Assembly: GCA_018066145.1 (NCBI GenBank)
Contig: JAGHRY010000035.1
Coordinates: 1-53,691 of the forward strand
Source of the DNA: Candidatus Colimorpha merdihippi
GTDB taxonomy: Bacteria > Bacteroidota > Bacteroidia > Bacteroidales > P3
Length of the DNA stretch: 53,691 nucleotides
Direction: 5' to 3'
This document shows positions 7,725 through 49,169 of this stretch, piece by piece. The notes under the pieces are model-generated. The model did no database searches, was not told the origin of the DNA, and worked only from the letters and a program-made list of their open reading frames with translations. The position numbers and the translations under genes are program-made. Every line of letters begins with the position of its first letter. Within the stretch, counting starts at the first letter, position 1.

Positions 7725-7798
7725 TGCGGAGTGATGTAACGGTAACATCTGGGGCTCATAATCCCAGTCTCCGGGTTCGACTCCCGGCTCCGCGACCA
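7725..7798 (+). tRNA. tRNA with anticodon CAT (Met, initiator, or Ile2 if lysidinylated)
   Basis: The cloverleaf can be drawn by hand. Acceptor TGCGGAG/CTCCGCG (U1-G72 wobble). D arm ATGT-AACGGTA-ACAT. Anticodon arm TGGGG-CTCATAA-TCCCA. T arm CCGGG-TTCGACT-CCCGG. Discriminator A and an encoded CCA. Confidence 0.85.
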
Positions 7799-13980: not shown

Positions 13981-14332
13981 TACGGCGCTCGTGGTCAGCT
14001 AGAGTAGCCTCACATGTAGCCACCTTGGTTTCCAAGGTGGCTATTTTTGTATTCACTTGTGTCTTCCAGGTATCAATGGTACCCTTCCAGGTTGTCAGTC
14101 CGTTAACCGCAGTTAACAAATTGGCAACGTCTGCTTCAAGCGGAGCAACCTCGTCAATCAACTCGGTAACCACAGCTCGAAGGGCAGCAAGCTGTTCCTC
14201 GACATTACTGCCCTCAAGCTTCTGTGTTGCATTGAAGGTACGCATCAGTATCTGGTTGTTGTAGTTCTGCTTCTGGATGACTTGCATGAGGTCATCAACG
14301 GTAAGCAGGTCAACGATATGACTGACGCTCAT
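13958..14332 (-). CDS. Coiled-coil protein, last gene of the fibre module (124 aa)
   Basis: RBS AAGGAG. Heptad-like sequence. It overlaps the resolvase gene tail-to-tail by 23 nt. Confidence 0.65.
   Translation of the reverse strand: MSVSHIVDLLTVDDLMQVIQKQNYNNQILMRTFNATQKLEGSNVEEQLAALRAVVTELIDEVAPLEADVANLLTAVNGLTTWKGTIDTWKTQVNTKIATLETKVATCEATLADHERRIKALEKA
14017..14048 (+). terminator. Rho-independent terminator of the plus-strand block
   Basis: A perfect 12-bp stem TAGCCACCTTGG/CCAAGGTGGCTA with a 3-nt loop, then TTTTT. It lies inside the 3' coding part of the convergent gene 13958..14332. Confidence 0.75.
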
Positions 14333-33580: not shown

Positions 33581-36500
33581 TTATACCACGGATGAGCTGC
33601 CTTTGTAAGCAGTTAAGACTCGCTCTTGAGCCGCCTGTCCAACTTGCTCGTTGAGTCCAAGCTTAGAGAATACAGCGTTTCTAACCTTACAAACGAAGTC
33701 GTCTTCCGGCGTGAACCGTCTACGAGACTTCTTCTTGTTAACTTCGTCTCGCGCCTCATTAAGCCTTCTAGCGACATACACCCTGGTTCTGTATTCGTAG
33801 TTAACCCACGGCTTCAAAGTGTATGCACCGTTAGCGAGGAAGGCGTCAAGGTCCTGAGATGGCCTAAGGAATATAGCCTCTCCATCTTCTCCATTGATCC
33901 AGTCTTTAACCATCTTGTCTACTTGTCCAAACTCAAAGCCAAGGTCGGTGGCCTCTGTAACCCTGTGCCTCGGCTCTGCCTTGGTGGTTCGCTCGGTCTT
34001 TTGGTCTGATGCACCAAAGCTTTCATCGGGTGCGTCAACCATCTCGAACTTACGAAGCAACTTGTGCCTCACTGAATCGGGAGCAGTCCCGGACACAGCA
34101 TAACGGAGAGCGGTGACGAAGTCCATTGGAGTACCCTGTCCTCCATGCAGCATCATCTGCAAGGACAAGAACTCCATCTGAGCAGCAGACAAACCGGGTC
34201 GAGTGGTCATCGAGTTATCTTCACTGAAGAAGCCCCAAGACGCATAAATATTCTCCCAGGTATAGCCAGGCTTGTTGCCTTCCTTCCATTCGACTTGCAT
34301 CTGCATAACAAGATTATTCTTGCCTGCATCTTGGCAACAACGGAACAAATGATTCATGGAACCATCGTCCGTGTTCTCGGGACAGAACTGAGGCATCATA
34401 GTATTAAAGAAGCGGAGGAATCCGTCTTGCCACTCGATACTCATTTCCATCATCATTTCCCACTCAAAGAAGTTGTTAGCCCTCTTTTGGACACCATCGA
34501 CCTCATACTTGTTAGCAAAGAAGTCACTAGGATTGACGTTAATCTTCCTAAGCCTCTTAACTACCTGCTTCATCCAAGCATCAAGATCGGGGTCTGTATG
34601 GAACTGAGTAACAGAATCAAACCTCTTTGGGTCAACTCGGCCCGCCAATAGTTCCTTCTTTAGCTCGGCATCGAGAGGAAGGAACCCTTCATGCTCTGCA
34701 ATATTGTAACGCCAGCGGTCGTTCTTAAACGTCATACCCATCATAGTTAGCATGGTGTCTCGCCTACGGTTGGAGCCAAGGCGACGACCAGATGTGGTGG
34801 CTTCAGCAACGAATACGTCAACGTTTGTACCATCAGACAGCGCGTGGTCCTTAATCCACCTAGTAAACATCATTGTCTTATTGGCCGCACAGAAGCCCTC
34901 AAAGAACTTGAAGAAGCGGTCTTTCATACTTGCTGTGTTAGACCACTCCATAGAGATGCTTGAATTAGCATCATCGAACGCCAAGTCTGTGACCTTGTAC
35001 TTAATCGGAACATCTCGGGACGTATGCTTATATTCCGGGAACGGAATAATAGGAGCATAGTAGACTTCCTTGATTGCCGAGTTGTACGGGTCGGTCAAGG
35101 TAACCTTTGCAAAACCAATACATTCACCAGGTCTACCTTCCTCTAAGAAAGCTTGGTCGGGGTTCTTTGACCACTTATCGAGGAACGCATTAATCAGCTT
35201 GGTATTCTTCTTGATAACAGCGCTCGCCAGGTTGTTGGCTTCGTTGACTCTGAAGTCAATATTGATAGTGTCGGGGTCGCCGTATGCGATGTGTTCGATG
35301 TCCTCTACGGTGCAGACCTCGTACTTAGCACGCCACATAGAGTGGTCGCTGCCATGTCCATCACTAGAATCAAGGGTGTCCATGAACATAGTCTGAACAT
35401 TGTCTGTCCAGGCAGTTCCAGCCTTCCTGGTTCCAGCGCTATTGAAGTGGACCTTATCGCCGAAGCTCTCGGTGCCAAAAGCACCTGCGTCTGCGTAAGG
35501 ATTACGACCATGAGCGTCCTCACACACAAGCGTCAGGTTGCTGGGGTCGCCATTCCAACTAGCAGAAGTGCACGTACCAAAGCCGTTTAGAATCATGTCG
35601 AAACACGGGACGCCGTTATATACGGAATTACCCATCTGCTCTACAACGTAGCCAGCGAAATCAGGATACCTCTTCATCCACACACCGAGGACGTTGTCGT
35701 CCTCGAAAAGCAGCGATGTTCCAGCCTCGAACGCTTCCTTAAACGCACGGTCTATAGACTCAGGAGACGCATCGGAGCCAATCAGAACGACGTTTGTGAT
35801 CCCGGGAACCTTATGTACCTCATAAGAATCAGCTGTCACGTATCCAACCATCTTGTAGCCAAAACCAATTCCGACATCGCTGGTGTTCTTCTTCTTATAC
35901 TCATCCTTAAGCCTGGTGCTGAGCGAGGACAACTGCTTAGGAGTCATAATCTCAAGCTCTCCATTTTGCTCGGCGAGTCTCTGGATGAGATTGTAGTTAC
36001 GCTCAAAGGAGCTTACTCGCTTATCCTTTGCTCCATACTTAGTCTGCTCACGCATTGATACGAAGCAAGGAACAGAGAGGACGATACCCCAAGCATCGGC
36101 TTCGCCGGTCATGCCTGTTGCGTCAGCCTCAGTCACCATCAGGTCCAGGACATCGTTCATCACTTCAGCGGCGTCCTTATTGTTCTTAACTTCACTCAAG
36201 TCAGGAAGCGTAGCTGCGACCGTCGTGTTCAGTCGGGAAGAAATCTGTCGCAAGGAACGGATACAGAACGACGGATACTCCTCGCCGGTTTCCTCGTCGG
36301 TTTCAATCTGAGGAACAACAATCCACCTAGCAAGGTTCATGTAGTGCTCAAGCTGCATGCTCTTGTAACCAAGCTTCTCGTTTGCTGCCATCATACGCTT
36401 AGCGTACATCGAACGAACCTTCTCGATTGCCAGCTCCGGGTCTACACCTTGGTTCAGCATGTTCCACCAGATTGTAGCAACTCCAGGATTGTTAGGGTCT

Positions 36501-39500
36501 TCGTTGAACATCCAGGACTCAAAGCTGCTTTCGTTAAGATCGAACCTACCTCGCTTAGAGATACTGTCTGTTCCATCGTCAGAGGTCTTCTTGATCTTCA
36601 GGTTGTTCTTCTCTGAAGAATCCTTACGCTTCAAGATAAAGAAGTTGGAACTACTTGTAATCATCGGCGAGGTGTCCTTACCTTTACGCATAATGCGCAG
36701 CAAGGGGTCAGTGAACTCTTCGTTAGGTGCATAAACGATAGCCTCAGACTGTCCATCATAAGATACACCTTCGGACGTCGGGCTACCAACGAGCCTTTGC
36801 CGTACCTCTTCGTCTGTGTTCGCGTCAACCTTCAGGTAACAGTCAGGACTAAACGGCATCAGCAATTGGATAAGACTAAACTGCTTAGTCATAACGCCTT
36901 CGTTACCGGTACTGATACTGGTCTTGGCGCCATTGTGGGTGTCAACACATTTCCAGAACACTGCGACGGAAGCATCGTCTACCTCAGCCCAGGACCAATC
37001 AGCCTCAGAACTGCCTCTTTTGTACACTTCTTGGACTTCTGCTGCATACTTCAGTACCAGTTCGTTTAGCTTAGACTTGGTCCTATCTGGCAGCTTGAGG
37101 TCAGGAAGTGCAGGGTTATCCAAGTCGATTGCCGCCAAAGTCTCAATAAGCTGGTCTTTAGCTTTAATAATATTAGTCTTCATGCCGCCTCGACCAATAT
37201 TGTCATGCTTGAACAATAGATGGCACATGCCGTTGAATCCAGGATGGTCGGTCATTATCTGGAAGGCTTCTTCCTGTCGCGTCCACCTCTTCTCCGTATT
37301 TGCAGCATACTTTACTCGACCCTTCTTGTCGATATACGCAGAAGTAGCAACGAATAGATTACACAGTTGAGGATACTCTTGAAGGACAGTGAATAGGTCT
37401 GCGTCAGATTCGATGCCAAGAGCTGACCTGCTTAGGATACAGGGGTTACCGTAGTCATCGTAGGTCTGAAGAACCTGGTCAAAAACAAGGACATTAATCA
37501 GGTCTCGCTTGGTGAGGCGGTCGTAACCAACCTGTTCCATAACAAAGTCGTCACCGGATTCAATCTCCTGAATGAAACCACCGATCTTGTTGTTTGCGAG
37601 TGCGGTATAGAGATGTTCCTGCTGCTCCTGCTGCTGTGACTTTTCAGACTCAGAGTAAGTAGGAAATGCTGTTGACGCTGTAGCATCTGCCCAGATGTCT
37701 TCTGATACAGCTTGCAAACGACGCGGGAACATACGAATGTTATTAAGAGCCTTTTCGAACTCGTCAAAGTCAGGTTCGCCGTCTTCATTCTTGAACACAA
37801 ATGGGTGCTCGTTGATTTCACCCTTTTTGTTCTTGTATGGAGACAAGACATCCATAGCAGACTTGAGACCTATGCCACTAGCTTCTTCCCATCCAACGAT
37901 ATTTGTTCCTGCGTAGTTACTAGCAGGGTCAAGTTCGAGCTCGTACAGGACAGAATTCTCGTGCATCTTAATCCAGCCACCATGGTCGATAACCAGGTCT
38001 TTGATGATGAGCCTCTTGGTCTTACCCGGAACGGTTACGTCCAGCATGAAATCATCCAGCGTCTCCCAGTTGCCAATCATCTCTGGAGTACAGGATGTCG
38101 CGAGCGGTTCCATACTGAGCGACATGCGGCGCAAAGTCTTTGCTCCACCCTTAATTCGATGACAAAATGCACGGAACTGTTCATCAGTAAGGCTTGCCAG
38201 AATTTCCCATGTATCACTAGAGGACTTGAGTACGGCCTGTTCGTTAGCAAGGTACTGTTCCAAGACCGCCTGCTGCTCTTCAGATTCACATTCAGCAATC
38301 TGTTGGCTTAGCTTAGCAATACGCATTGTACGCCAGTCGTAAACCATAGCCATACGAATCGAATCCAAATCGTATCCACGAAGCATCGCTTGTCCGTAGT
38401 AGGACTTCTCGAAACCAACGGGGTTGTCCATGTTGTAATAAGCAAACATGTCAGGATGGGTTCCAGCCAACACGTCTACATACTTTCGGGATAACACATG
38501 AACGTTCTGCATTGAAGTATCATCAAGGCTGTTCCTCACAGAGCGATAGCGCTCAAGGATGTTCTTCATAGACGCAAAAGCTTGCACCGAAACCTTCTCG
38601 TAATCTGCCGCAGCAGAAGTGCGGGAGTCTGCTAGAGACAAAATGAAGTCAACCCAACCATCAACGCCGTTGCCTACAATGTTGTCACGAGACTTATGCT
38701 TCCGGTTAGTTGAGAAGTTAAAGTGGTTCTTGTATGCAAACTCTCGAATAGTCTTATGCTTATAGATGTGAGCTACGTATAGCTCTGGGGTTTCGTTCTT
38801 CTTACCTTTGTTCTTAATGTAAAGAGAAGAATCGTAGGGGAGGCTATCGAACTGTTCTCCATTGCGCGTCTTCTTCTTGAGGGTAGACTCTCCTGCGAAA
38901 TGGATACCATTTATAAGCTTGTCTCCAATAATGGTACCAAAGGAATAATCGCCATAAACATCCAGGAAAGGCTTGACAAATTCATTATTCTTCGTAAGAA
39001 GCTTGCCATCCTTGCTCAAGGTAATGTTGATTTGCTTCATGTCAGTACCCTCGATGACAGACAGGTTGACGTCAAGAGACTTACTTGCCAGGTCTGCACG
39101 GGAGATGTACTCATTCCAAGCATTAGCGAAAGCCTTAAAGAACTCTGCTGGTTCTCCATTGTACTTCGGGTCGTTCGGTAGGCCGCATCCATACTTGGGG
39201 TCATGGATGATGAAATTGCGCTTCCTCTCTGACTTCTTCAATTTTGTGGTATCGAAGGTTTTAGCAGATGCAGCTTCGGCCATTAGACCGATAGTGGTCA
39301 TCGCTGCGCTCTTGTACATGCCATCTTCGCCAACAAACAGACTCGGGTTTCGCTTAATCGACTTCATAATTGAAGCAGTCTGACGGAACTGAACTGCACC
39401 CTTCGGGTCGTCTTCAAGTTCCAAAGCGTGAGACACTAGGAACTCACCCCAGTTAGCACCGAGGGTTCCGGTTGTTGCCTGGGCTGCAAGCTTCCACTGC

Positions 39501-41083
39501 GCCCTCTCGGTATCGGTAAGTTCTGCCAGCTCAGCAAAATCGTTCACGTCTTCGATGGCCTGTTGATTCTCCGGATTGTCCATAATGGTATCCATCTGAA
39601 TCTTGAAGGAAGAATCAACTCGTTCATACAGAGACTCGATACAAGTTGCTACCTTCCGTGCGCTTCTGTCGCATCCTTCATTGAGGTAATGGAGGAACAG
39701 CAGTGCAGCCTGCTCTTGCTTTTTCTTGTCGTTATTTCTCTCGCTCAAAAGGGTTTCAAAGTTCTGAGCAGCGAGGTCAACGTATTCTTCTTTTACGTCA
39801 AGCTTAACGAGCCATTTCTTGAAAGTCTTGACAGATTCTCCTACCTTGATGTTGATGGGGGCAAAGTAGTCCCAGTCAATCAAGCAGTCTCCACCGACGC
39901 CAATAAGATACTCAATAGGGTTCCTGGCTTGGTCTACGTACTTGCCATCAAGATGCACGGTTGCGTTGTCGCCGTCGAAGTCAGCATTGAAAGCCTTAAC
40001 AGCCAACGGGTGCAGACGAATACCGTCTCCGTAATGGCAACGAAGGATACGAGCCTGGAAAGACTGAGGATCAGAAGTAGGGTTCTTGGTTACGGTAGCC
40101 CACAAAGCAACAGTATCGAGTGCCTGCTTGAACTCAGTAATAGACTCCGTTGCAATCTCTTCATACGTAAACTCATCTTCCGTAAAGGTTCGCAATGGGG
40201 TTTCTGCGTTCCGGTTGTACGCTTCGATTACCTTGTTAAGACGGTACACAATCTTGTTACCAGGCTGCTGGAGTGCCATCAAGAGCCAGTTTGAACCAAT
40301 GGAAACATCCATCAGTCCAATCTTAGTGTCAGGTATTGCTACGAGCTGACCGCTAAGATTGTTGCCGTTAGGAATCGTAGACCTGTTATCGACCTCGCTC
40401 TTAATCTTTTTCATGTGCCACTTGGTTGCTCGCGACCCACGCTTGCGACCGAGAGTTTGGTCTAACGGCTTTTCTATCTTGTCATAGAGGCCCTTAGTCT
40501 TAACACTGGTAAGCTCTTCTTTTGCGCGCTTTTTTGAATCCTTAGGGTCGCTAGGACTCTGTGCAGCGGCAATCTTGTTCGGATTTCTGCGCTTAGTGGT
40601 GCTAGGTTTAGCAGACTTCTTCCCTTGAGTTTTTGCCGTTTCCGGAAGATTCGGCTTCTCGACCTCAACAATGTCGGCTCCCTTGATGGCTTCTTGGGCC
40701 GGAGCCGCCGGCGCTTCAGCAGCGGTGTCCTGCATGTCAGACAGCTTAGGTCTTACGTATCCGCTTGCGCTCTGCTGCTGCTGACCATTCTTAGATGCAG
40801 AGAAGGCCACCGTTTTGGGGGTGGCCTTCATGGTGTCAGCTGAGTCAGACAGAGACGCCAAGCTAGGCTTTTCATAGGTAGTGTCAGCAACCACAGGCGG
40901 GACTTTTTCAGTTACCACAGGTGCTTGTTCGGTCTGCTCCTGTTCGGTATTGGTAACAATAACGTCCTTAGAGTAACCGCCTGTCTTACCTTGTAGTGGT
41001 TGTTCCTCGGTTACACCATCTGCTGCTTGCCGTTGAGCCTCTAGGCTCTTTTGCTTTGCTTGAAGTTCTGCGACGTTTGGCAT
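33581..41083 (-). CDS. Giant single-chain RNA polymerase candidate with beta-prime-type DPBB (2,500 aa)
   Basis: RLHPLAVKAFNADFDGDNATVHL is encoded at 39961-40020. The upstream half-barrel SGQLVAIPDTKIGLMDVSIGSNWLLMAL is at about 40255-40375. TAATG-coupled to the 729-aa ORF. Confidence 0.7.
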   Translation of the reverse strand: MPNVAELQAKQKSLEAQRQAADGVTEEQPLQGKTGGYSKDVIVTNTEQEQTEQAPVVTEKVPPVVADTTYEKPSLASLSDSADTMKATPKTVAFSASKNGQQQQSASGYVRPKLSDMQDTAAEAPAAPAQEAIKGADIVEVEKPNLPETAKTQGKKSAKPSTTKRRNPNKIAAAQSPSDPKDSKKRAKEELTSVKTKGLYDKIEKPLDQTLGRKRGSRATKWHMKKIKSEVDNRSTIPNGNNLSGQLVAIPDTKIGLMDVSIGSNWLLMALQQPGNKIVYRLNKVIEAYNRNAETPLRTFTEDEFTYEEIATESITEFKQALDTVALWATVTKNPTSDPQSFQARILRCHYGDGIRLHPLAVKAFNADFDGDNATVHLDGKYVDQARNPIEYLIGVGGDCLIDWDYFAPINIKVGESVKTFKKWLVKLDVKEEYVDLAAQNFETLLSERNNDKKKQEQAALLFLHYLNEGCDRSARKVATCIESLYERVDSSFKIQMDTIMDNPENQQAIEDVNDFAELAELTDTERAQWKLAAQATTGTLGANWGEFLVSHALELEDDPKGAVQFRQTASIMKSIKRNPSLFVGEDGMYKSAAMTTIGLMAEAASAKTFDTTKLKKSERKRNFIIHDPKYGCGLPNDPKYNGEPAEFFKAFANAWNEYISRADLASKSLDVNLSVIEGTDMKQINITLSKDGKLLTKNNEFVKPFLDVYGDYSFGTIIGDKLINGIHFAGESTLKKKTRNGEQFDSLPYDSSLYIKNKGKKNETPELYVAHIYKHKTIREFAYKNHFNFSTNRKHKSRDNIVGNGVDGWVDFILSLADSRTSAAADYEKVSVQAFASMKNILERYRSVRNSLDDTSMQNVHVLSRKYVDVLAGTHPDMFAYYNMDNPVGFEKSYYGQAMLRGYDLDSIRMAMVYDWRTMRIAKLSQQIAECESEEQQAVLEQYLANEQAVLKSSSDTWEILASLTDEQFRAFCHRIKGGAKTLRRMSLSMEPLATSCTPEMIGNWETLDDFMLDVTVPGKTKRLIIKDLVIDHGGWIKMHENSVLYELELDPASNYAGTNIVGWEEASGIGLKSAMDVLSPYKNKKGEINEHPFVFKNEDGEPDFDEFEKALNNIRMFPRRLQAVSEDIWADATASTAFPTYSESEKSQQQEQQEHLYTALANNKIGGFIQEIESGDDFVMEQVGYDRLTKRDLINVLVFDQVLQTYDDYGNPCILSRSALGIESDADLFTVLQEYPQLCNLFVATSAYIDKKGRVKYAANTEKRWTRQEEAFQIMTDHPGFNGMCHLLFKHDNIGRGGMKTNIIKAKDQLIETLAAIDLDNPALPDLKLPDRTKSKLNELVLKYAAEVQEVYKRGSSEADWSWAEVDDASVAVFWKCVDTHNGAKTSISTGNEGVMTKQFSLIQLLMPFSPDCYLKVDANTDEEVRQRLVGSPTSEGVSYDGQSEAIVYAPNEEFTDPLLRIMRKGKDTSPMITSSSNFFILKRKDSSEKNNLKIKKTSDDGTDSISKRGRFDLNESSFESWMFNEDPNNPGVATIWWNMLNQGVDPELAIEKVRSMYAKRMMAANEKLGYKSMQLEHYMNLARWIVVPQIETDEETGEEYPSFCIRSLRQISSRLNTTVAATLPDLSEVKNNKDAAEVMNDVLDLMVTEADATGMTGEADAWGIVLSVPCFVSMREQTKYGAKDKRVSSFERNYNLIQRLAEQNGELEIMTPKQLSSLSTRLKDEYKKKNTSDVGIGFGYKMVGYVTADSYEVHKVPGITNVVLIGSDASPESIDRAFKEAFEAGTSLLFEDDNVLGVWMKRYPDFAGYVVEQMGNSVYNGVPCFDMILNGFGTCTSASWNGDPSNLTLVCEDAHGRNPYADAGAFGTESFGDKVHFNSAGTRKAGTAWTDNVQTMFMDTLDSSDGHGSDHSMWRAKYEVCTVEDIEHIAYGDPDTINIDFRVNEANNLASAVIKKNTKLINAFLDKWSKNPDQAFLEEGRPGECIGFAKVTLTDPYNSAIKEVYYAPIIPFPEYKHTSRDVPIKYKVTDLAFDDANSSISMEWSNTASMKDRFFKFFEGFCAANKTMMFTRWIKDHALSDGTNVDVFVAEATTSGRRLGSNRRRDTMLTMMGMTFKNDRWRYNIAEHEGFLPLDAELKKELLAGRVDPKRFDSVTQFHTDPDLDAWMKQVVKRLRKINVNPSDFFANKYEVDGVQKRANNFFEWEMMMEMSIEWQDGFLRFFNTMMPQFCPENTDDGSMNHLFRCCQDAGKNNLVMQMQVEWKEGNKPGYTWENIYASWGFFSEDNSMTTRPGLSAAQMEFLSLQMMLHGGQGTPMDFVTALRYAVSGTAPDSVRHKLLRKFEMVDAPDESFGASDQKTERTTKAEPRHRVTEATDLGFEFGQVDKMVKDWINGEDGEAIFLRPSQDLDAFLANGAYTLKPWVNYEYRTRVYVARRLNEARDEVNKKKSRRRFTPEDDFVCKVRNAVFSKLGLNEQVGQAAQERVLTAYKGSSSVV

Positions 41084-46759: not shown

Positions 46760-46948
46760 TTATTCCTTGAATTTAAGGTACTTAGCCTTTTTTCGGCAGC
46801 TTTTACAGTACCCGTCAAGGCCATCAACCTTAGACTTATTCTTGTAGAAGTTACTCGCGTCGAAGACATGCCTACATCTCATGCACATCTTAGTACCGTC
46901 TTCCTTCAGTTTTGTTTCAGTATTGCGAGCTGCCTTAGGGTCGTACAT
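46760..46948 (-). CDS. Stand-alone zinc-ribbon protein (62 aa), first gene of the minus-strand block
   Basis: RBS AGGAGA. CMRC..x20..CKSC, with FYKNKSKVDGLDGYCKSCRKK resembling the N-terminal module of the HNH gene at 9321. Confidence 0.6.
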   Translation of the reverse strand: MYDPKAARNTETKLKEDGTKMCMRCRHVFDASNFYKNKSKVDGLDGYCKSCRKKAKYLKFKE

Positions 46949-47002
46949 GTTTTCTCCTGTACCTTATTGATTACTGTGCCCTCCGGGTCCCTATTGTTCC
47001 CT

Positions 47003-47030
47003 ATAGTAACCAATGGTTGCCAATTACTAA
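47003..47030 (-). promoter_or_regulatory. Possible sigma-A-type promoter for the minus-strand block
   Basis: The minus strand reads TTAGTA-16 nt-TACTAT about 50 nt upstream of the 46948 start. Found by eye only. Confidence 0.3.
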
Positions 47031-47626
47031 TAGGTCCCTTCCCTCACCCGTTCACCAAAGGGCAATAATGGGGGTACCATTTTCGCTTGCCCTTGGGCCA
47101 TCTTGCCCTTTGGAGCCACGGTTTCGGTCGGTACTTATATTGTACCATATTGTTGCCCGGTTACATGGAGTTACATGATTTGACTTCCCATCTGGGAAAA
47201 CATCGGGAAAAATTTTTGGGGATAGATTTGCCCTAGCCTTCCACCCACCACATCTTGACACCAGGGTCACTAAGGTCGCCGAGCTCTGAAAGAGCGAGGC
47301 GGCCCATGTTGCGCCTAACTTGTTACATATTGTCACAAGGTTGTTACATTGTGTGCATGGGCCATTTGGCACCTATCGAGTCCCCTACTGGTCACTAGGA
47401 ATGTTACCCCAGGTAACACCGTGGTTCGAGCTTTGGAAAACACCGGGGTTACCTCGGGGGAACTTCCACCCTTCCATTATTACCACCTATACCTAATATA
47501 TACCTACCCCCCCACTTAGTAACATGATTGTCACCATTCGGCAACCATACTGGTTGCCTCAGGTGCCAATTTGTGACCATACTCGTGACATCGCGGGGAA
47601 CGACGGGTGCGTGCAGGGCCGAACGT

Positions 47627-47744
47627 GCGACCTCTAGGGAGCACCGGCTTGTCCGTTGTGAGGCAACTCGCTGCACCCCAAAGTTCCTTTGTGGGCCCCA
47701 CCGAGTTACCTCCCAGCCGTCAAGCCTGGTGCCCTAGAGGTCGC
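47627..47744 (+). other. Long-stem structured element (about 23-bp closing helix)
   Basis: GCGACCTCTAGGG(ag)CACC+GGCTTG pairs with CAAGCC(t)GGTG+CCCTAGAGGTCGC. Inside are GTGAG-GCAA-CTCGC (GNRA loop) and CCCAAAG-ttc-CTTTG(t)GGG. Confidence 0.6.
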
Positions 47745-47758
47745 CAGTCTGGGTCTAA

Positions 47759-47813
47759 GGCTGGGAACCTAGCTTACCTTTAGCTCCGCTAAAAGTAACC
47801 AATGTTCCCAGCC
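47759..47813 (+). other. Second long-stem element
   Basis: A perfect 10-bp GGCTGGGAAC / GTTCCCAGCC enclosing CTTTAGC-tcc-GCTAAAG. Confidence 0.55.
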
Positions 47814-47815
47814 TT

Positions 47816-47877
47816 GGCGCCCCTTGGGCGCCTTAGCGCTGCACCCTTCGGGTAGCAGCTTAGCTACCTATGGTAGC
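47816..47877 (+). promoter_or_regulatory. Hairpin cassette R1 upstream of early gene 1
   Basis: GGCGCCC-ctt-GGGCGCC (47816-47832), TTAG, GCTGCaCCC-ttc-GGGtaGCAGC (47838-47859), GCTACC-tat-GGTAGC (47863-47877). Confidence 0.5.
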
Positions 47878-47903
47878 ATATAGTATGTAGAAAGGAGCCT
47901 ACC

Positions 47904-48182
47904 ATGGCAGCAGCAGAGAAGAAGCTCTTTAGGGGTCGCAAGGTCGAAATCGAGTATGTCGAGAACGCCATCCTCAAGTCCGCCCGCGATGTCACCCGCA
48001 AGAGCGACGGTGAAACCTTCCAGGTTGTCACCTTCGTTCTTGAGACCGGCGAGACCGCAGACATCGTCTTCCCCAATGGGTGGGCACCCATCGGGTTCGA
48101 CATGTACTACGGTGACGCCTACACCGGTGGCTGGGTCGAAACCGACGAGGGCAAGCATCTGTTCCAGATGCAGCCCGCCTAG
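47904..48182 (+). CDS. Early protein 1 (92 aa)
   Basis: RBS AAAGGAG. Followed by its own terminator. Confidence 0.7.
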   Translation: MAAAEKKLFRGRKVEIEYVENAILKSARDVTRKSDGETFQVVTFVLETGETADIVFPNGWAPIGFDMYYGDAYTGGWVETDEGKHLFQMQPA

Positions 48183-48190
48183 ACTCCCAT

Positions 48191-48218
48191 GAGTGCACCC
48201 AAGTGGTGCACTCTTTTT
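48191..48218 (+). terminator. Rho-independent terminator after early gene 1
   Basis: A perfect 9-bp stem GAGTGCACC/GGTGCACTC with a 5-nt loop, then TTTTT. It is nested in an outer 8-bp pairing AGACTCCC/GGGAGTCT (48181-48228). Confidence 0.75.
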
Positions 48219-48306
48219 GGGGGAGTCTGATTCTAAAAACAAGGAAGACCTACGACCTATCATGTGACTTCCTTGTGCAAACTAGTGACAATCATGTTAC
48301 CAAGAA

Positions 48307-48353
48307 GGCGCCTTCCCAGGCGCCTTAGGGCTGCTCCCTTTGGGCGCCAGCCC
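48307..48353 (+). promoter_or_regulatory. Hairpin cassette R2 upstream of early gene 2
   Basis: GGCGCCt-tccc-aGGCGCC, TTAG, GGGCTGcTCCC-ttt-GGGcgcCAGCCC. The leader down to the RBS is similar to that of R3. Confidence 0.5.
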
Positions 48354-48381
48354 TCGAAACAATTAGTCAAAGGAGTTTACC

Positions 48382-48639
48382 ATGTCTAACCGTAAAGACC
48401 TCTTCAAGTCTTTTACTTCCACTAGCTTCATTGACGGTGTCAAGTGGCAGATTATTGGTGACAGCGTCTTCGCCTTCATACATCCCGTCTTCGAATACAC
48501 CGAGGACATTGAAGCCGAGGTTGCCAAAGTATACGAACAGTTCCCTACAGTCATCAACGAAAGGTACTTTGACGTTTGCGCCAACCTGTTCATCGTTGAT
48601 GTCTTCAGTAACAGGGTTGTCGTAACTGACACCTTTTAG
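48382..48639 (+). CDS. Early protein 2 (85 aa)
   Basis: RBS AAAGGAG. The stop codon sits inside a 9-bp hairpin GTTACTCAG-cgcaa-CTGAGTAAC (48639-48661). Confidence 0.7.
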   Translation: MSNRKDLFKSFTSTSFIDGVKWQIIGDSVFAFIHPVFEYTEDIEAEVAKVYEQFPTVINERYFDVCANLFIVDVFSNRVVVTDTF

Positions 48640-48677
48640 TTACTCAGCGCAACTGAGTAACCGTAAGCAACCAACAG

Positions 48678-48724
48678 GGCGCCCTCCCGGGCGCCTTAGG
48701 GCTGCCCCCTTCGGGGTCTAGCCC
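48678..48724 (+). promoter_or_regulatory. Hairpin cassette R3 upstream of early gene 3
   Basis: GGCGCCC-tccc-GGGCGCC, TTAG, GGGCTGCCCC-cttc-GGGGtctAGCCC. Confidence 0.5.
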
Positions 48725-48752
48725 TTGGAACAACTAGTTAAAAGGAGTTATC

Positions 48753-48914
48753 ATGAATCGCTCTCTCTCTGCCCTTGTCTATGCAGATCCGAAGCATGTT
48801 GAGAAGCCCGCGAAGCAACACCGCAAGAGCGGTGGCGGAGCTCATCAGCTGCCCCGTACATCTAATAAGCACGTTGACAAGATGTATCCCAAGAGGAACA
48901 GGATAACGCAATAA
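48753..48914 (+). CDS. Early protein 3, basic 53-aa peptide (not in the ORF track)
   Basis: RBS AAAAGGAG. Sequence MNRSLSALVYADPKHVEKPAKQHRKSGGGAHQLPRTSNKHVDKMYPKRNRITQ. Confidence 0.55.
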   Translation: MNRSLSALVYADPKHVEKPAKQHRKSGGGAHQLPRTSNKHVDKMYPKRNRITQ

Positions 48915-48944
48915 GCTCCTGTTAGCCTCTGACTTCCTGAGGTT

Positions 48945-49007
48945 GTAGCAGCCATAAGCCACCAGTAGGTTCCTTCCTTGCCTACTGGTTGGCTGCTACA
49001 TATTTTG
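48945..49007 (+). terminator. Strong hairpin, terminator- or attenuator-like
   Basis: GTAGCAGCCA/TGGCTGCTAC (10 bp) plus ACCAGTAGG/CCTACTGGT (9 bp), followed by ATATTTTG. The U-tract is short. Confidence 0.5.
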
Positions 49008-49019
49008 ATAGGAGTAACC

Positions 49020-49085
49020 ATGTTTGAATGGCTGTTCTTGATTGGCATAGTGACTGCCTGTTACCTGTATGTTTGGTCCGAGTAA
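49020..49085 (+). CDS. Micro-ORF, 21-aa hydrophobic peptide
   Basis: TAGGAGTAACC-ATG. Sequence MFEWLFLIGIVTACYLYVWSE. Confidence 0.45.
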   Translation: MFEWLFLIGIVTACYLYVWSE

Positions 49086-49094
49086 GGAGTAACC

Positions 49095-49169
49095 ATGTGG
49101 CTTTACTTTGTTATCTCTATGTTAATCGCGGGTACCTTGGTAGGTACCTATATGCTATCCGATAGTTAG
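49095..49169 (+). CDS. Micro-ORF, 24-aa hydrophobic peptide
   Basis: AGGAGTAACC-ATG. Sequence MWLYFVISMLIAGTLVGTYMLSDS. Confidence 0.45.
   Translation: MWLYFVISMLIAGTLVGTYMLSDS

Follow-up and report, generated by a model that had tools for sequence, protein, structure and literature searches.

Double-hairpin cassettes ahead of the first three early genes of a largely unannotated phage: candidate promoter-plus-leader modules

In phages phi14:2 and P23-45 the first genes are transcribed by injected polymerases of the two-barrel class (bioRxiv 10.1101/2020.03.07.982082; PMC10770324), and the cassettes described here bear on the question of how such sigma-less, single-chain virion polymerases find their start sites. 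For P23-45, whose virion polymerase is gp96, a linear AT-rich pre-early promoter motif and a 26-nt terminator motif have been described, and knowledge of the promoter consists of a sequence logo only (PMC10770324). For gp66 of phi14:2 no common early-promoter motif was found and single-stranded DNA was the only template used in vitro (bioRxiv 10.1101/2020.03.07.982082). The subject of this analysis is a stretch of 53,691 bp (contig JAGHRY010000035.1, here called the window) which has the appearance of a whole phage genome, about 54 kb long, and in which three double-hairpin cassettes, R1 (47816-47859), R2 (48305-48353) and R3 (48678-48724), each head one of the first three early genes. The evidence supports the view that the cassettes are structure-selected 5' elements of separate early transcription units and not terminators; that they are promoter-plus-leader modules of the pre-early genes, serving the phage's own giant beta'-type polymerase, is the explanation adopted here, although tentatively. 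Phage-specific promoters and 5' leader hairpins are already known, but a module of this structured kind, serving beta'-type virion polymerases of a family not described before, would be new.

Phage N4, with the promoters P1-P3 used by its gp50, is alike in that three copies head the first-transcribed genes of a phage with its own polymerase, in the G+C stem of 5-7 bp and loop of 3-4 nt with pairing kept while non-contacted bases vary, in template-strand loops mostly of the G..A type, and in units that end at hairpin terminators. Set beside the N4 rule of a 5-7-bp stem, a 3-nt loop and pairing kept as bases vary, the first hairpins in the window have 7-bp stems and 3-4-nt loops. However, the N4 enzyme is T7-like, whereas the polymerase encoded here has a beta'-type barrel with the motif NADFDGD; there is no stem base or loop common to all copies, there is a second, sequence-conserved hairpin, and the first hairpin is not conserved across the polymerase family. 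The cassettes thus fall outside the N4 promoter family, which is defined by a different type of polymerase, and the N4 geometry that a preliminary description of this DNA had applied to an injected polymerase is not transferable.

P23-45 has a two-barrel polymerase that enters with the DNA, as is presumed for the phage of the window, and is alike in its few short pre-early units, each marked by repeated phage-specific motifs near one genome region only, but there the polymerase is fused to the tape measure protein. The crAss-like phage phi14:2 is alike in that gp66, whose gene lies among those for structural proteins, is a giant polymerase of one chain with a DxDxD barrel, in early genes transcribed independently of the host enzyme (as demonstrated for phi14:2), and in the highly transcribed early non-coding regions reported there, which are comparable to the leader RNA described below; it differs in that the catalytic motif lies at residue 1361, compared to 366 here, and in having a host in the Bacteroidota. 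No sequence similarity to gp96 or to gp66 could be detected for the 2500-aa polymerase of the window.

Anatomy of the cassettes and their counterparts in relatives

Direct reading, a pattern search and folding all place the three cassettes where the preliminary description had put them, before gene 1 (47904-48182, + strand; 92 aa, no known family, kept in all relatives of the window's clade), gene 2 (48382-48639, +; 85 aa, present in this genome only, with no homologue in any related locus) and gene 3 (48753-48914, +; 53 aa, basic, kept in relatives). Each cassette, likewise on the + strand, consists of a first hairpin (HP1), a short linker and a second hairpin (HP2). R1 reads GGCGCCC-ctt-GGGCGCC (HP1, 47816-47832, seven G-C/C-G pairs), TTAGC (47833-47837, in which the pyrimidine-A step is a candidate transcription start) and GCTGCACCC-ttc-GGGTaGCAGC (HP2, 47838-47859, with a bulged A). 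R2 reads (AA)GGCGCCT-tccc-AGGCGCC(TT), that is, a 9-bp HP1 AAGGCGCCT-tccc-AGGCGCCTT closed by a T-A and not a C-G pair (48305-48326), followed by AG and GGGCTGcTCCC-ttt-GGGcgcCAGCCC (HP2, 48329-48353), and R3 reads GGCGCCC-tccc-GGGCGCC (HP1, 48678-48695), TTAG and GGGCTGCCCC-cttc-GGGGTctAGCCC (HP2, 48699-48724, with one sense-strand G.T pair). TTAG stands 3' of HP1 in all three.

A search of the whole window for GGCGCC-N3-8-GGCGCC returned exactly three matches (47816, 48307 and 48678), all on the + strand, compared to a shuffle mean of 0.03 and none of 100 shuffles with three, so the earlier remark that the paired pattern occurs nowhere else is borne out. The HP1 stems of R1-R3 are the window's only all-G+C 7-bp perfect hairpins, and 11 of its 46 perfect hairpins lie in 47540-48834. 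The HP2 core, GCTG[CT]-N0-2-CCC..GGG, also has three matches, all on the + strand and inside the cassettes (shuffle mean 0.57). As RNA each cassette folds into HP1 plus HP2, with energies of -36.1 (R1, including a third hairpin), -30.8 (R2) and -32.5 kcal/mol (R3) and z-scores of -4.4, -3.9 and -3.6 respectively; as DNA the energies are -18.7 to -22.5 kcal/mol per cassette and the z-scores -4.4 to -5.6 on either strand. R1 is flanked by two extra hairpins, the imperfect HP0 abutting it (47757-47815, +; inverted repeat I2, 28-nt arms, 86% complementary) and HP3 (GCTACC-tat-GGTAGC, 47863-47877, +), before which there is a second TTAG, making a four-hairpin array (47755-47880, -66.9 kcal/mol, z -8.0); one relative, L055, has an equivalent third hairpin, TTCC-cttca-GGAA. 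R2 and R3, already noted to be alike up to the ribosome-binding site, can be aligned over 86 nt at 79% identity, the alignment reaching from 8 nt 5' of HP1 to the ATG. Since their similarity sets in so close to HP1, and since gene 2, unique to this genome, has a copy of its own, the cassette appears to be a self-contained module.

Homologues of the polymerase are rare, only three having been found among 5.8 billion proteins (41, 38 and 27% identity). Their contigs (L055, L056/57 and L058) were the starting relatives, and further contigs were obtained by way of the gene-1 protein (L059-L068 and L094) and from IMG/VR (L095 and L132-L135); the common layout is one of lysis genes, about 1 kb of non-coding DNA and divergent small early genes. 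In L055, L056, L059, L063, L064 and L068, which with the window make up a clade of seven genomes, the same architecture (type A, 14 copies) stands before the gene-1 homologue and some neighbouring genes. MAFFT put the cassette arms out of register and pairing was therefore checked by script, without a covariance model. HP1 is perfectly Watson-Crick paired in all 14 copies, which comprise eight distinct inner stems (GGCGCCC, GGCGCCT, GGGACCC, GCCCC, GGGCCC, GGCGGCC, GAGCCC and GCGCCC) and eight distinct loops of 3-10 nt, with no stem position conserved. Stems differ even within one genome (GGCGCCC and GGGCCC in L056, GCGCCC and GGCGGCC in L059), which argues for selection on pairing and not for a fixed double-stranded binding site. 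This bears directly on the suggestion that HP1 is a double-stranded operator, in which a dimeric regulator would bind a pair of GGCGCC palindromes separated by one turn of the helix. The arms are indeed palindromic and spaced 11-12 bp apart, and operator-like GTNAC repeats are plentiful nearby, but arms that differ within a genome while self-complementarity stays, together with the 24 sites that GGCGCC on its own has in the window, make such an operator very improbable. The same number of sites disposes of GGCGCC as an avoided restriction site.

The covariation claimed in the preliminary description is found for HP1 across genomes and not for HP2 within the window, where for the most part the 3' arm merely slides in register along a near-constant (GG)GCTGC-N-CCC. 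Among the type-A copies, too, the 5' arm of HP2 is near-constant (GCTGC-N-CCC); the register in which the 3' arm pairs varies from copy to copy, and there is a bulge or mismatch in every case. Similarly, the TTAG that had been called invariant is so in the window and its nearest relatives but gives way elsewhere to AAATAG, ATAGC or CAGG, according to lineage; counted on the printed sequences, every one of the 14 copies has a TA or CA step 0-3 nt 5' of the first arm of HP2. HP2 starts 53-71 nt upstream of the start codon in 12 of the 14, whereas the distance from the upstream stop codon to the cassette varies between 32 and 125 nt where a gene precedes the cassette at all, and a fixed distance on the one side with a variable one on the other indicates that the cassettes belong to the downstream gene. 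Early-region copies in the relatives are all on the sense strand of the early genes. The order of terminator, cassette or motif, and gene recurs in the window (T1, then R2), L055, L059 and L095, and in the last of these only about 21 nt lie between one terminator and the next motif copy.

These observations also bear on whether the cassettes, or HP1 alone, might be terminators or insulators of the virion polymerase, for which P23-45, with its conserved non-canonical terminator motif near the pre-early genes, offers a precedent (PMC10770324). HP1 is a very stable G+C hairpin and R3 lies 38 nt past gene 2 with no canonical terminator in between, the AT-rich 9-bp hairpin 3' of gene 2 (48639-48661, +) being without a T-run. 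Against this, the position is fixed to the downstream start codon and not to the upstream stop, R1 has no upstream gene, R2 would be redundant after the canonical terminator, and no cassette comes after gene 3. Nor is there a T-run after either hairpin, HP1 being followed by TTAG and HP2 by TTAG, CTCG or CTTG, and a terminator scan of the + strand flagged only T1 and a weak site at 47130, the sole cassette-related match being HP1 of R3 read on the - strand, with a weak tail. A terminator function is accordingly improbable. T1 itself, the canonical terminator previously ascribed to gene 1, is a 9-bp stem (48191-48213) followed by TTTTT (48191-48218 in all, +; z -4.1). The sigma-70 scan agreed with the earlier statement that R1 and R3 have no convincing -35/-10 pair, and promoter scans did not pick up the sigma-A-type candidate once suggested at 48264-48292; sigma-70/sigma-A consensus promoters are not enriched window-wide, with 8 matches at 10 or more of 12 positions compared to 4-11 in shuffles. 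Cassettes placed after terminators, the fixed start-codon distance and the lack of a host-type promoter all uphold the view of genes 1-3 as separate units.

Outside the window's clade the architecture changes, so that the search of relatives originally proposed recovered it within the clade and found HP1 not to be universal in the family. In type B (L058, L060/L094, L065 and L066) HP1 is reduced to GCAC-N6-(G/A/T)TGC, fused directly to TGCTGCCC-TTTTC-GGG, and in L095 and L132-L134 the equivalent position holds a linear-looking motif of about 20-30 nt, (TT)GCAC..GCGCCTGTGTTTACTGGTGT. In L095 this motif, GCGCCTGTGTTTACTGGTGT, has four matches at no more than 3 mismatches compared to 0 expected, and two degenerate copies, the six lying before early genes on the - strand at 2227, 1922, 1768, 1369, 1048 and 986. 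Distant relatives have 3-6 motif copies at equivalent positions, usually after a canonical terminator, and in L095, L133, L134 and L063 there are tandem copies without an open reading frame (ORF) in between. When a profile of the clade's HP2 was used with nhmmer, type-B copies ranked next after type A, on the sense strand, although with non-significant E values of 0.2-8, and the L095 type was not detected. To judge from this distribution the family taken together can do without HP1. Orphan cassettes in L056 ((-) 3258-3200, then about 300 nt) and L058 ((-) 3078-2790) stand before non-coding sequence of 250-350 nt that is rich in hairpins and has no ORF, and may drive a non-coding RNA.

The polymerase and the nature of the two hairpins

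The presumed virion polymerase is a 2500-aa protein (33581-41083, - strand) encoded in the structural block, with a beta'-type catalytic barrel and the motif NADFDGD at residues 366-372. It matches the Pfam family RNA_pol_Rpb1_2 (E 1.5e-6; 29 bits, cut-off 25.3), the universal active-site segment of beta' can be aligned to its residues 340-378 (stretch IRLHPLAVKAFNADFDGDNATVHL), and NADFDGD is invariant in four homologues; on these matches it is probably an enzyme of the two-barrel type, and it is not one of the N4/T7 type. The 60 best matches in a profile search of the PDB were all beta'/gamma chains of cellular RNA polymerase, with gp66 of phi14:2, gp96 of P23-45 and QDE-1 absent from them, and there was no T7-like polymerase among the larger ORFs scanned, the scan not having taken in every ORF. 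The gene lies between ORFs of 729 and 1528 aa, and an endolysin, tail fibres and a portal/adaptor-like protein are encoded nearby. At its N-terminus the protein has some 230 residues of low complexity, rich in Q, A, P and T. Homologues of the polymerase (P0003 and P0004) are fused to YpsA (PF06908) and NADAR (PF08719) domains, which suggests extra injected activities.

Whether the cassettes act as DNA or as RNA seems to have a different answer for each hairpin. For whole cassettes of the window's clade the sense and antisense energies are nearly equal and allow no strand call. HP1 is a perfect palindrome, without a G.U pair in any copy and equally stable on both strands, and 6 of its 8 distinct loops are T..C on the sense strand, that is G..A on the template, as compared to 1 of 38 background hairpins in the window; the template-strand loops are AAG in R1 and GGGA in R2 and R3. 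Tri- and tetraloops closed by G..A are hyper-stable in DNA and are the loop type of the N4 promoters, in which a sheared G:A pair permits extrusion (PMC4496689). A DNA-hairpin role for HP1 is thus possible, because of its perfect palindromes and G..A template loops. In its strictest form this would mean that supercoiling drives HP1 out as a hairpin of the template strand, that the injected polymerase recognises the stem and purine loop of this hairpin, and that the A/G of TTAG, some 11 nt away from the centre of the loop, is where transcription begins. The geometry of the window fits, with 7-bp stems, loops of 3-4 nt and the A of TTAG 11-11.5 nt from the loop centre, as do the perfect pairing of HP1 and its compensatory changes across genomes, and the use of single-stranded DNA alone by gp66 in vitro indicates that a two-barrel enzyme may need a pre-melted entry (bioRxiv 10.1101/2020.03.07.982082). 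Nevertheless the polymerase is not of the N4 or T7 type, the R1 loop AAG is at odds with the N4 loop G-R-A (PMC4496689), the distance from loop centre to AG step ranges from about 9 to about 14 nt in relatives (counted on the printed sequences), HP1 is absent from most of the wider family despite the same polymerase, and stems vary within one genome with no conserved base such as the -8G of N4. An N4-type mechanism in the strict sense is therefore rather unlikely. It is also unlikely that the cassettes are the first recognisable promoters of an undescribed family of giant beta'-type virion polymerases of phages with Gram-positive hosts, working through an extruded HP1 that offers the sigma-less enzyme a pre-melted entry and through a protective 5' stem-loop formed by the first nucleotides transcribed; were this so, an unrelated class of polymerase would have arrived by convergence at the hairpin-promoter principle of N4, and this would explain the transcription of single-stranded DNA only by crAss-type virion polymerases in vitro.

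HP2, by comparison, looks more like an RNA element. It is imperfect everywhere and in R3 includes a sense-strand G.T pair, and the hairpins at the HP2 position in L095 and L134 rely on G.U pairs. Pointing towards DNA instead, the sequence CCC-TTC-GGG is held in a triloop register and not as a cUUCGg tetraloop, its template complement being C-GAA-G. Taken together, this is most simply understood if HP2 acts in the transcript and HP1, where present, could act as DNA.

The upstream leader RNA and the weighing of the readings

Some 300 nt of non-coding sequence before R1 are conserved in all 11 genomes aligned, including those at 24-27% polymerase identity, and contain a structured RNA element of three helices and 20 pairs (47610-47672, +). 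In the 11-genome alignment 99.1% of its cells are paired, compared to 27-45% in slid controls, compensatory double changes are seen at 11 of the 20 pairs, and none of 500 shuffles attains these values. This is a robust new structured RNA; it had no Rfam match. One U.G pair is kept in 10 of the 11 genomes, which places the structure on the sense strand of the early genes and implies that the region is transcribed rightwards. The element may be a leader, an antiterminator or a polymerase-binding RNA. HK022 put and lambda nut are antitermination RNAs, present once per operon, and are alike in being structured RNA just past an early promoter and before a terminator-containing operon, a description that fits this element better than it fits the cassettes; unlike the latter they do not stand before every gene, and there is no sequence or Rfam match here. 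Further upstream a single-copy block conserved in all aligned relatives, GAGCTTTGGAA..GGGGGAACTTCC..ATTATTACC..TAATATATACC..CCCCCCC (47430-47516, +), has an AT-rich core between a G5 run and a C5-7 run, occurs once in the window and presumably serves as promoter or loading site for the leader RNA.

GTNAC-N5-6-GTNAC repeats, often GGTNACC-like, fill the divergent control region (47160-47180, 47320-47349 and 47515-47543) and are also found in L055 and L056; an inverted copy of the GTNAC-N6-GTNAC form, GTGACAATCATGTTAC (48283-48300, +), lies 5 nt 5' of R2 as part of inverted repeat I1 (47515-47543 / 48276-48304). The repeats look like operator sites for a dimeric regulator.

With a leader RNA in place the cassettes might function as RNA only, which is the main rival to the promoter reading. 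Transcription would come from the block at about 47450-47516 by way of the leader RNA, perhaps a put-like antiterminator that carries it past T1, and the cassettes would be leader or intercistronic modules, which is possible though doubtful. In one version, to be entertained with similar reserve, cleavage in the single-stranded TTAG would yield an upstream fragment capped at its 3' end by HP1 and a downstream mRNA with HP2 capping its 5' end; in another, no easier to favour, the cassettes would insulate each ribosome-binding site from upstream sequence. The leader RNA is certainly structure-selected on the sense strand, with no terminator seen before R1. HP2 has bulges, mismatches, the G.U pair of R3 and a sequence-conserved 5' arm, the motifs of L095 and L134 depend on G.U for their pairing and have no stability except as sense RNA, the start-codon distance is fixed, and the similarity of R2 and R3 extends through the ribosome-binding site. 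Moreover, the host is probably Gram-positive, and in Gram-positive hosts 5'-terminal stem-loops are strong stabilisers of mRNA. Such stabilisers (ermC, SP82) and the RNase III sites of T7 early RNA are alike in being stable hairpins just before each early cistron or at the mature 5' end of the message, but here the stems are short, HP1 is a perfect palindrome, canonical terminators stand between the units and there are gene-less tandem copies. RNase III acts on double-stranded RNA, interrupted or not, of about 20 bp or more, a length reached only by HP0 and the hairpin after gene 3 (48944-49000); HP1 at 7-9 bp and HP2 at 9-10 bp are too short for it. The strong canonical terminators between units (T1, and those of L055, L059 and L095) would oblige one to assume extra antitermination, tandem copies without an ORF (L095, L133, L134 and L063) have no obvious use as processing or stability elements, an HP1 that is always perfect, free of G.U and equal on both strands is unusual for an RNA-selected helix, and later genes of the same operon have no cassettes. 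If RNA-only function were nonetheless the case, the compact 5' leader module and the leader RNA at 47610-47672 would be new regulatory RNAs of a near-unannotated lineage.

According to the preferred promoter-plus-leader reading, the phage polymerase would enter the cell together with the DNA and read the cassettes, starting transcription at or next to the pyrimidine-A step of the linker (TTAG here). HP2 would then be a stem-loop at the extreme 5' end of the mRNA, 53-71 nt before the start codon, where it would protect the message, and perhaps also be part of the recognised start region. HP1 would be an upstream structural element, an extruded DNA hairpin giving the polymerase a pre-melted entry, or alternatively a cap or insulator against RNA arriving from upstream, and the units would end at terminators, T1 for gene 1 and the long hairpin for gene 3. 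This reading is supported by the lack of host-type promoters, by confinement of the cassettes to the sense strand of the early region and by the need of a phage polymerase for signals of its own; tandem copies without an ORF support it as well, because tandem repetition is typical of promoters. The probability estimates for the different readings overlap, the strict N4-like mechanism being a sub-case of the promoter reading. Either way, at the very places where such promoters must lie this phage family has short elements that are repeated and selected for structure, and its natural variants, with HP1, without HP1 and in tandem, are concrete templates for the question of promoter recognition.

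A number of points weigh against the promoter reading. The start site, the polymerase used and the mechanism are all inferred, and packaging of the polymerase in the virion is argued from gene position only, the gene layout being that expected for ejected internal proteins. An AlphaFold model of polymerase residues 230-1400 is of too low quality to use (mean pLDDT, the predicted local distance score, 46; pTM, the predicted template-modelling score, 0.29). The motifs of P23-45 are linear and AT-rich, not hairpins. HP1 is missing or shrunk to GCAC..GTGC outside the window's clade although the polymerase is kept, and the cassette types are equivalent by position only. The motif hairpins of L095 are more stable as sense RNA (-6.9 to -15.0 kcal/mol) than as antisense RNA (-3.3 to -8.0) or DNA (-2.5 to -5.9). 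Gene 4 and those beyond it have no cassette, even though gene 4 comes directly after the long hairpin. Finally, a covarying RNA lies upstream of R1, and no terminator is seen in the sequence from this leader element to R1. R1 itself is therefore probably read through as RNA, which leaves less reason to hold that it has to be a promoter, and gene 1 could be expressed from the upstream block with R1 acting purely as RNA.

Rejected candidates, neighbouring genes and genome layout

Database searches for the cassettes outside the relatives described above produced little. Near and distant DNA searches against GenBank phages gave no match. In IMG/VR the exact cassette pattern had 54 single, unclustered matches, none repeated or clustered as in a relative, a locus search with the polymerase protein found nothing, and an alignment-based search found one true relative, L095, together with generic beta' matches. 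The exact HP2 pattern had 0 matches in IMG/VR and 25 in JGI metagenomes, all unrelated, being either a conserved bacterial coding segment or ordinary terminators with no homologues of genes 1, 2 or 3. A loose double-hairpin descriptor was uninformative, with 8-15 background matches per shuffle. Two linear motifs, CCAGTCT and TGACTTCCT, were considered as promoters on account of their numbers (15 compared to 9 and 25 compared to 15 expected, reached in 1-2 of 100 shuffles), but they are scattered over both strands and over coding sequence and do not mark the starts of units.

Rfam 15 at the gathering score found only one RNA in the window, a tRNA gene in the middle region (7725-7795, +; RF00005, 49.7 bits), and a permissive search of 46800-49100 gave chance-level matches. 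Pfam and PHROGs gave almost no annotation of early and structural proteins; with almost no proteins matching families of known function, the lineage is, by this measure, largely unannotated. The lysis genes (Holin_SPP1, GH25, CW_7 and PG_binding_1) point to a host that is probably Gram-positive. In relatives gene 3 comes after gene 1 or a gene-1 paralogue without a cassette of its own, and the second slot is occupied by a gene-1 paralogue in L055 and L059.

The strong hairpin reported earlier after gene 3 was recovered at 48944-49000 (+; -34.6 kcal/mol, z -5.6) and is followed by ATATTTTGA and then directly by the ribosome-binding site of gene 4 at 49010; it is conserved with altered stems in all relatives of the window's clade, homologues being present in L055, L056, L059, L060 and L063, and a conserved GGTTAGCCTCTGAC..CCTAAGGT lies 5' of it. 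From 49020 onward the genes are tightly packed. The early and middle block occupies the + strand from 47.9 kb through the window end and on to 13.4 kb, and the structural and lysis block the - strand from 14 to 46.9 kb. Where the two blocks converge there is a 12-bp perfect hairpin with TTTTT (14017-14043, + strand), which is probably a terminator and possibly serves both directions.

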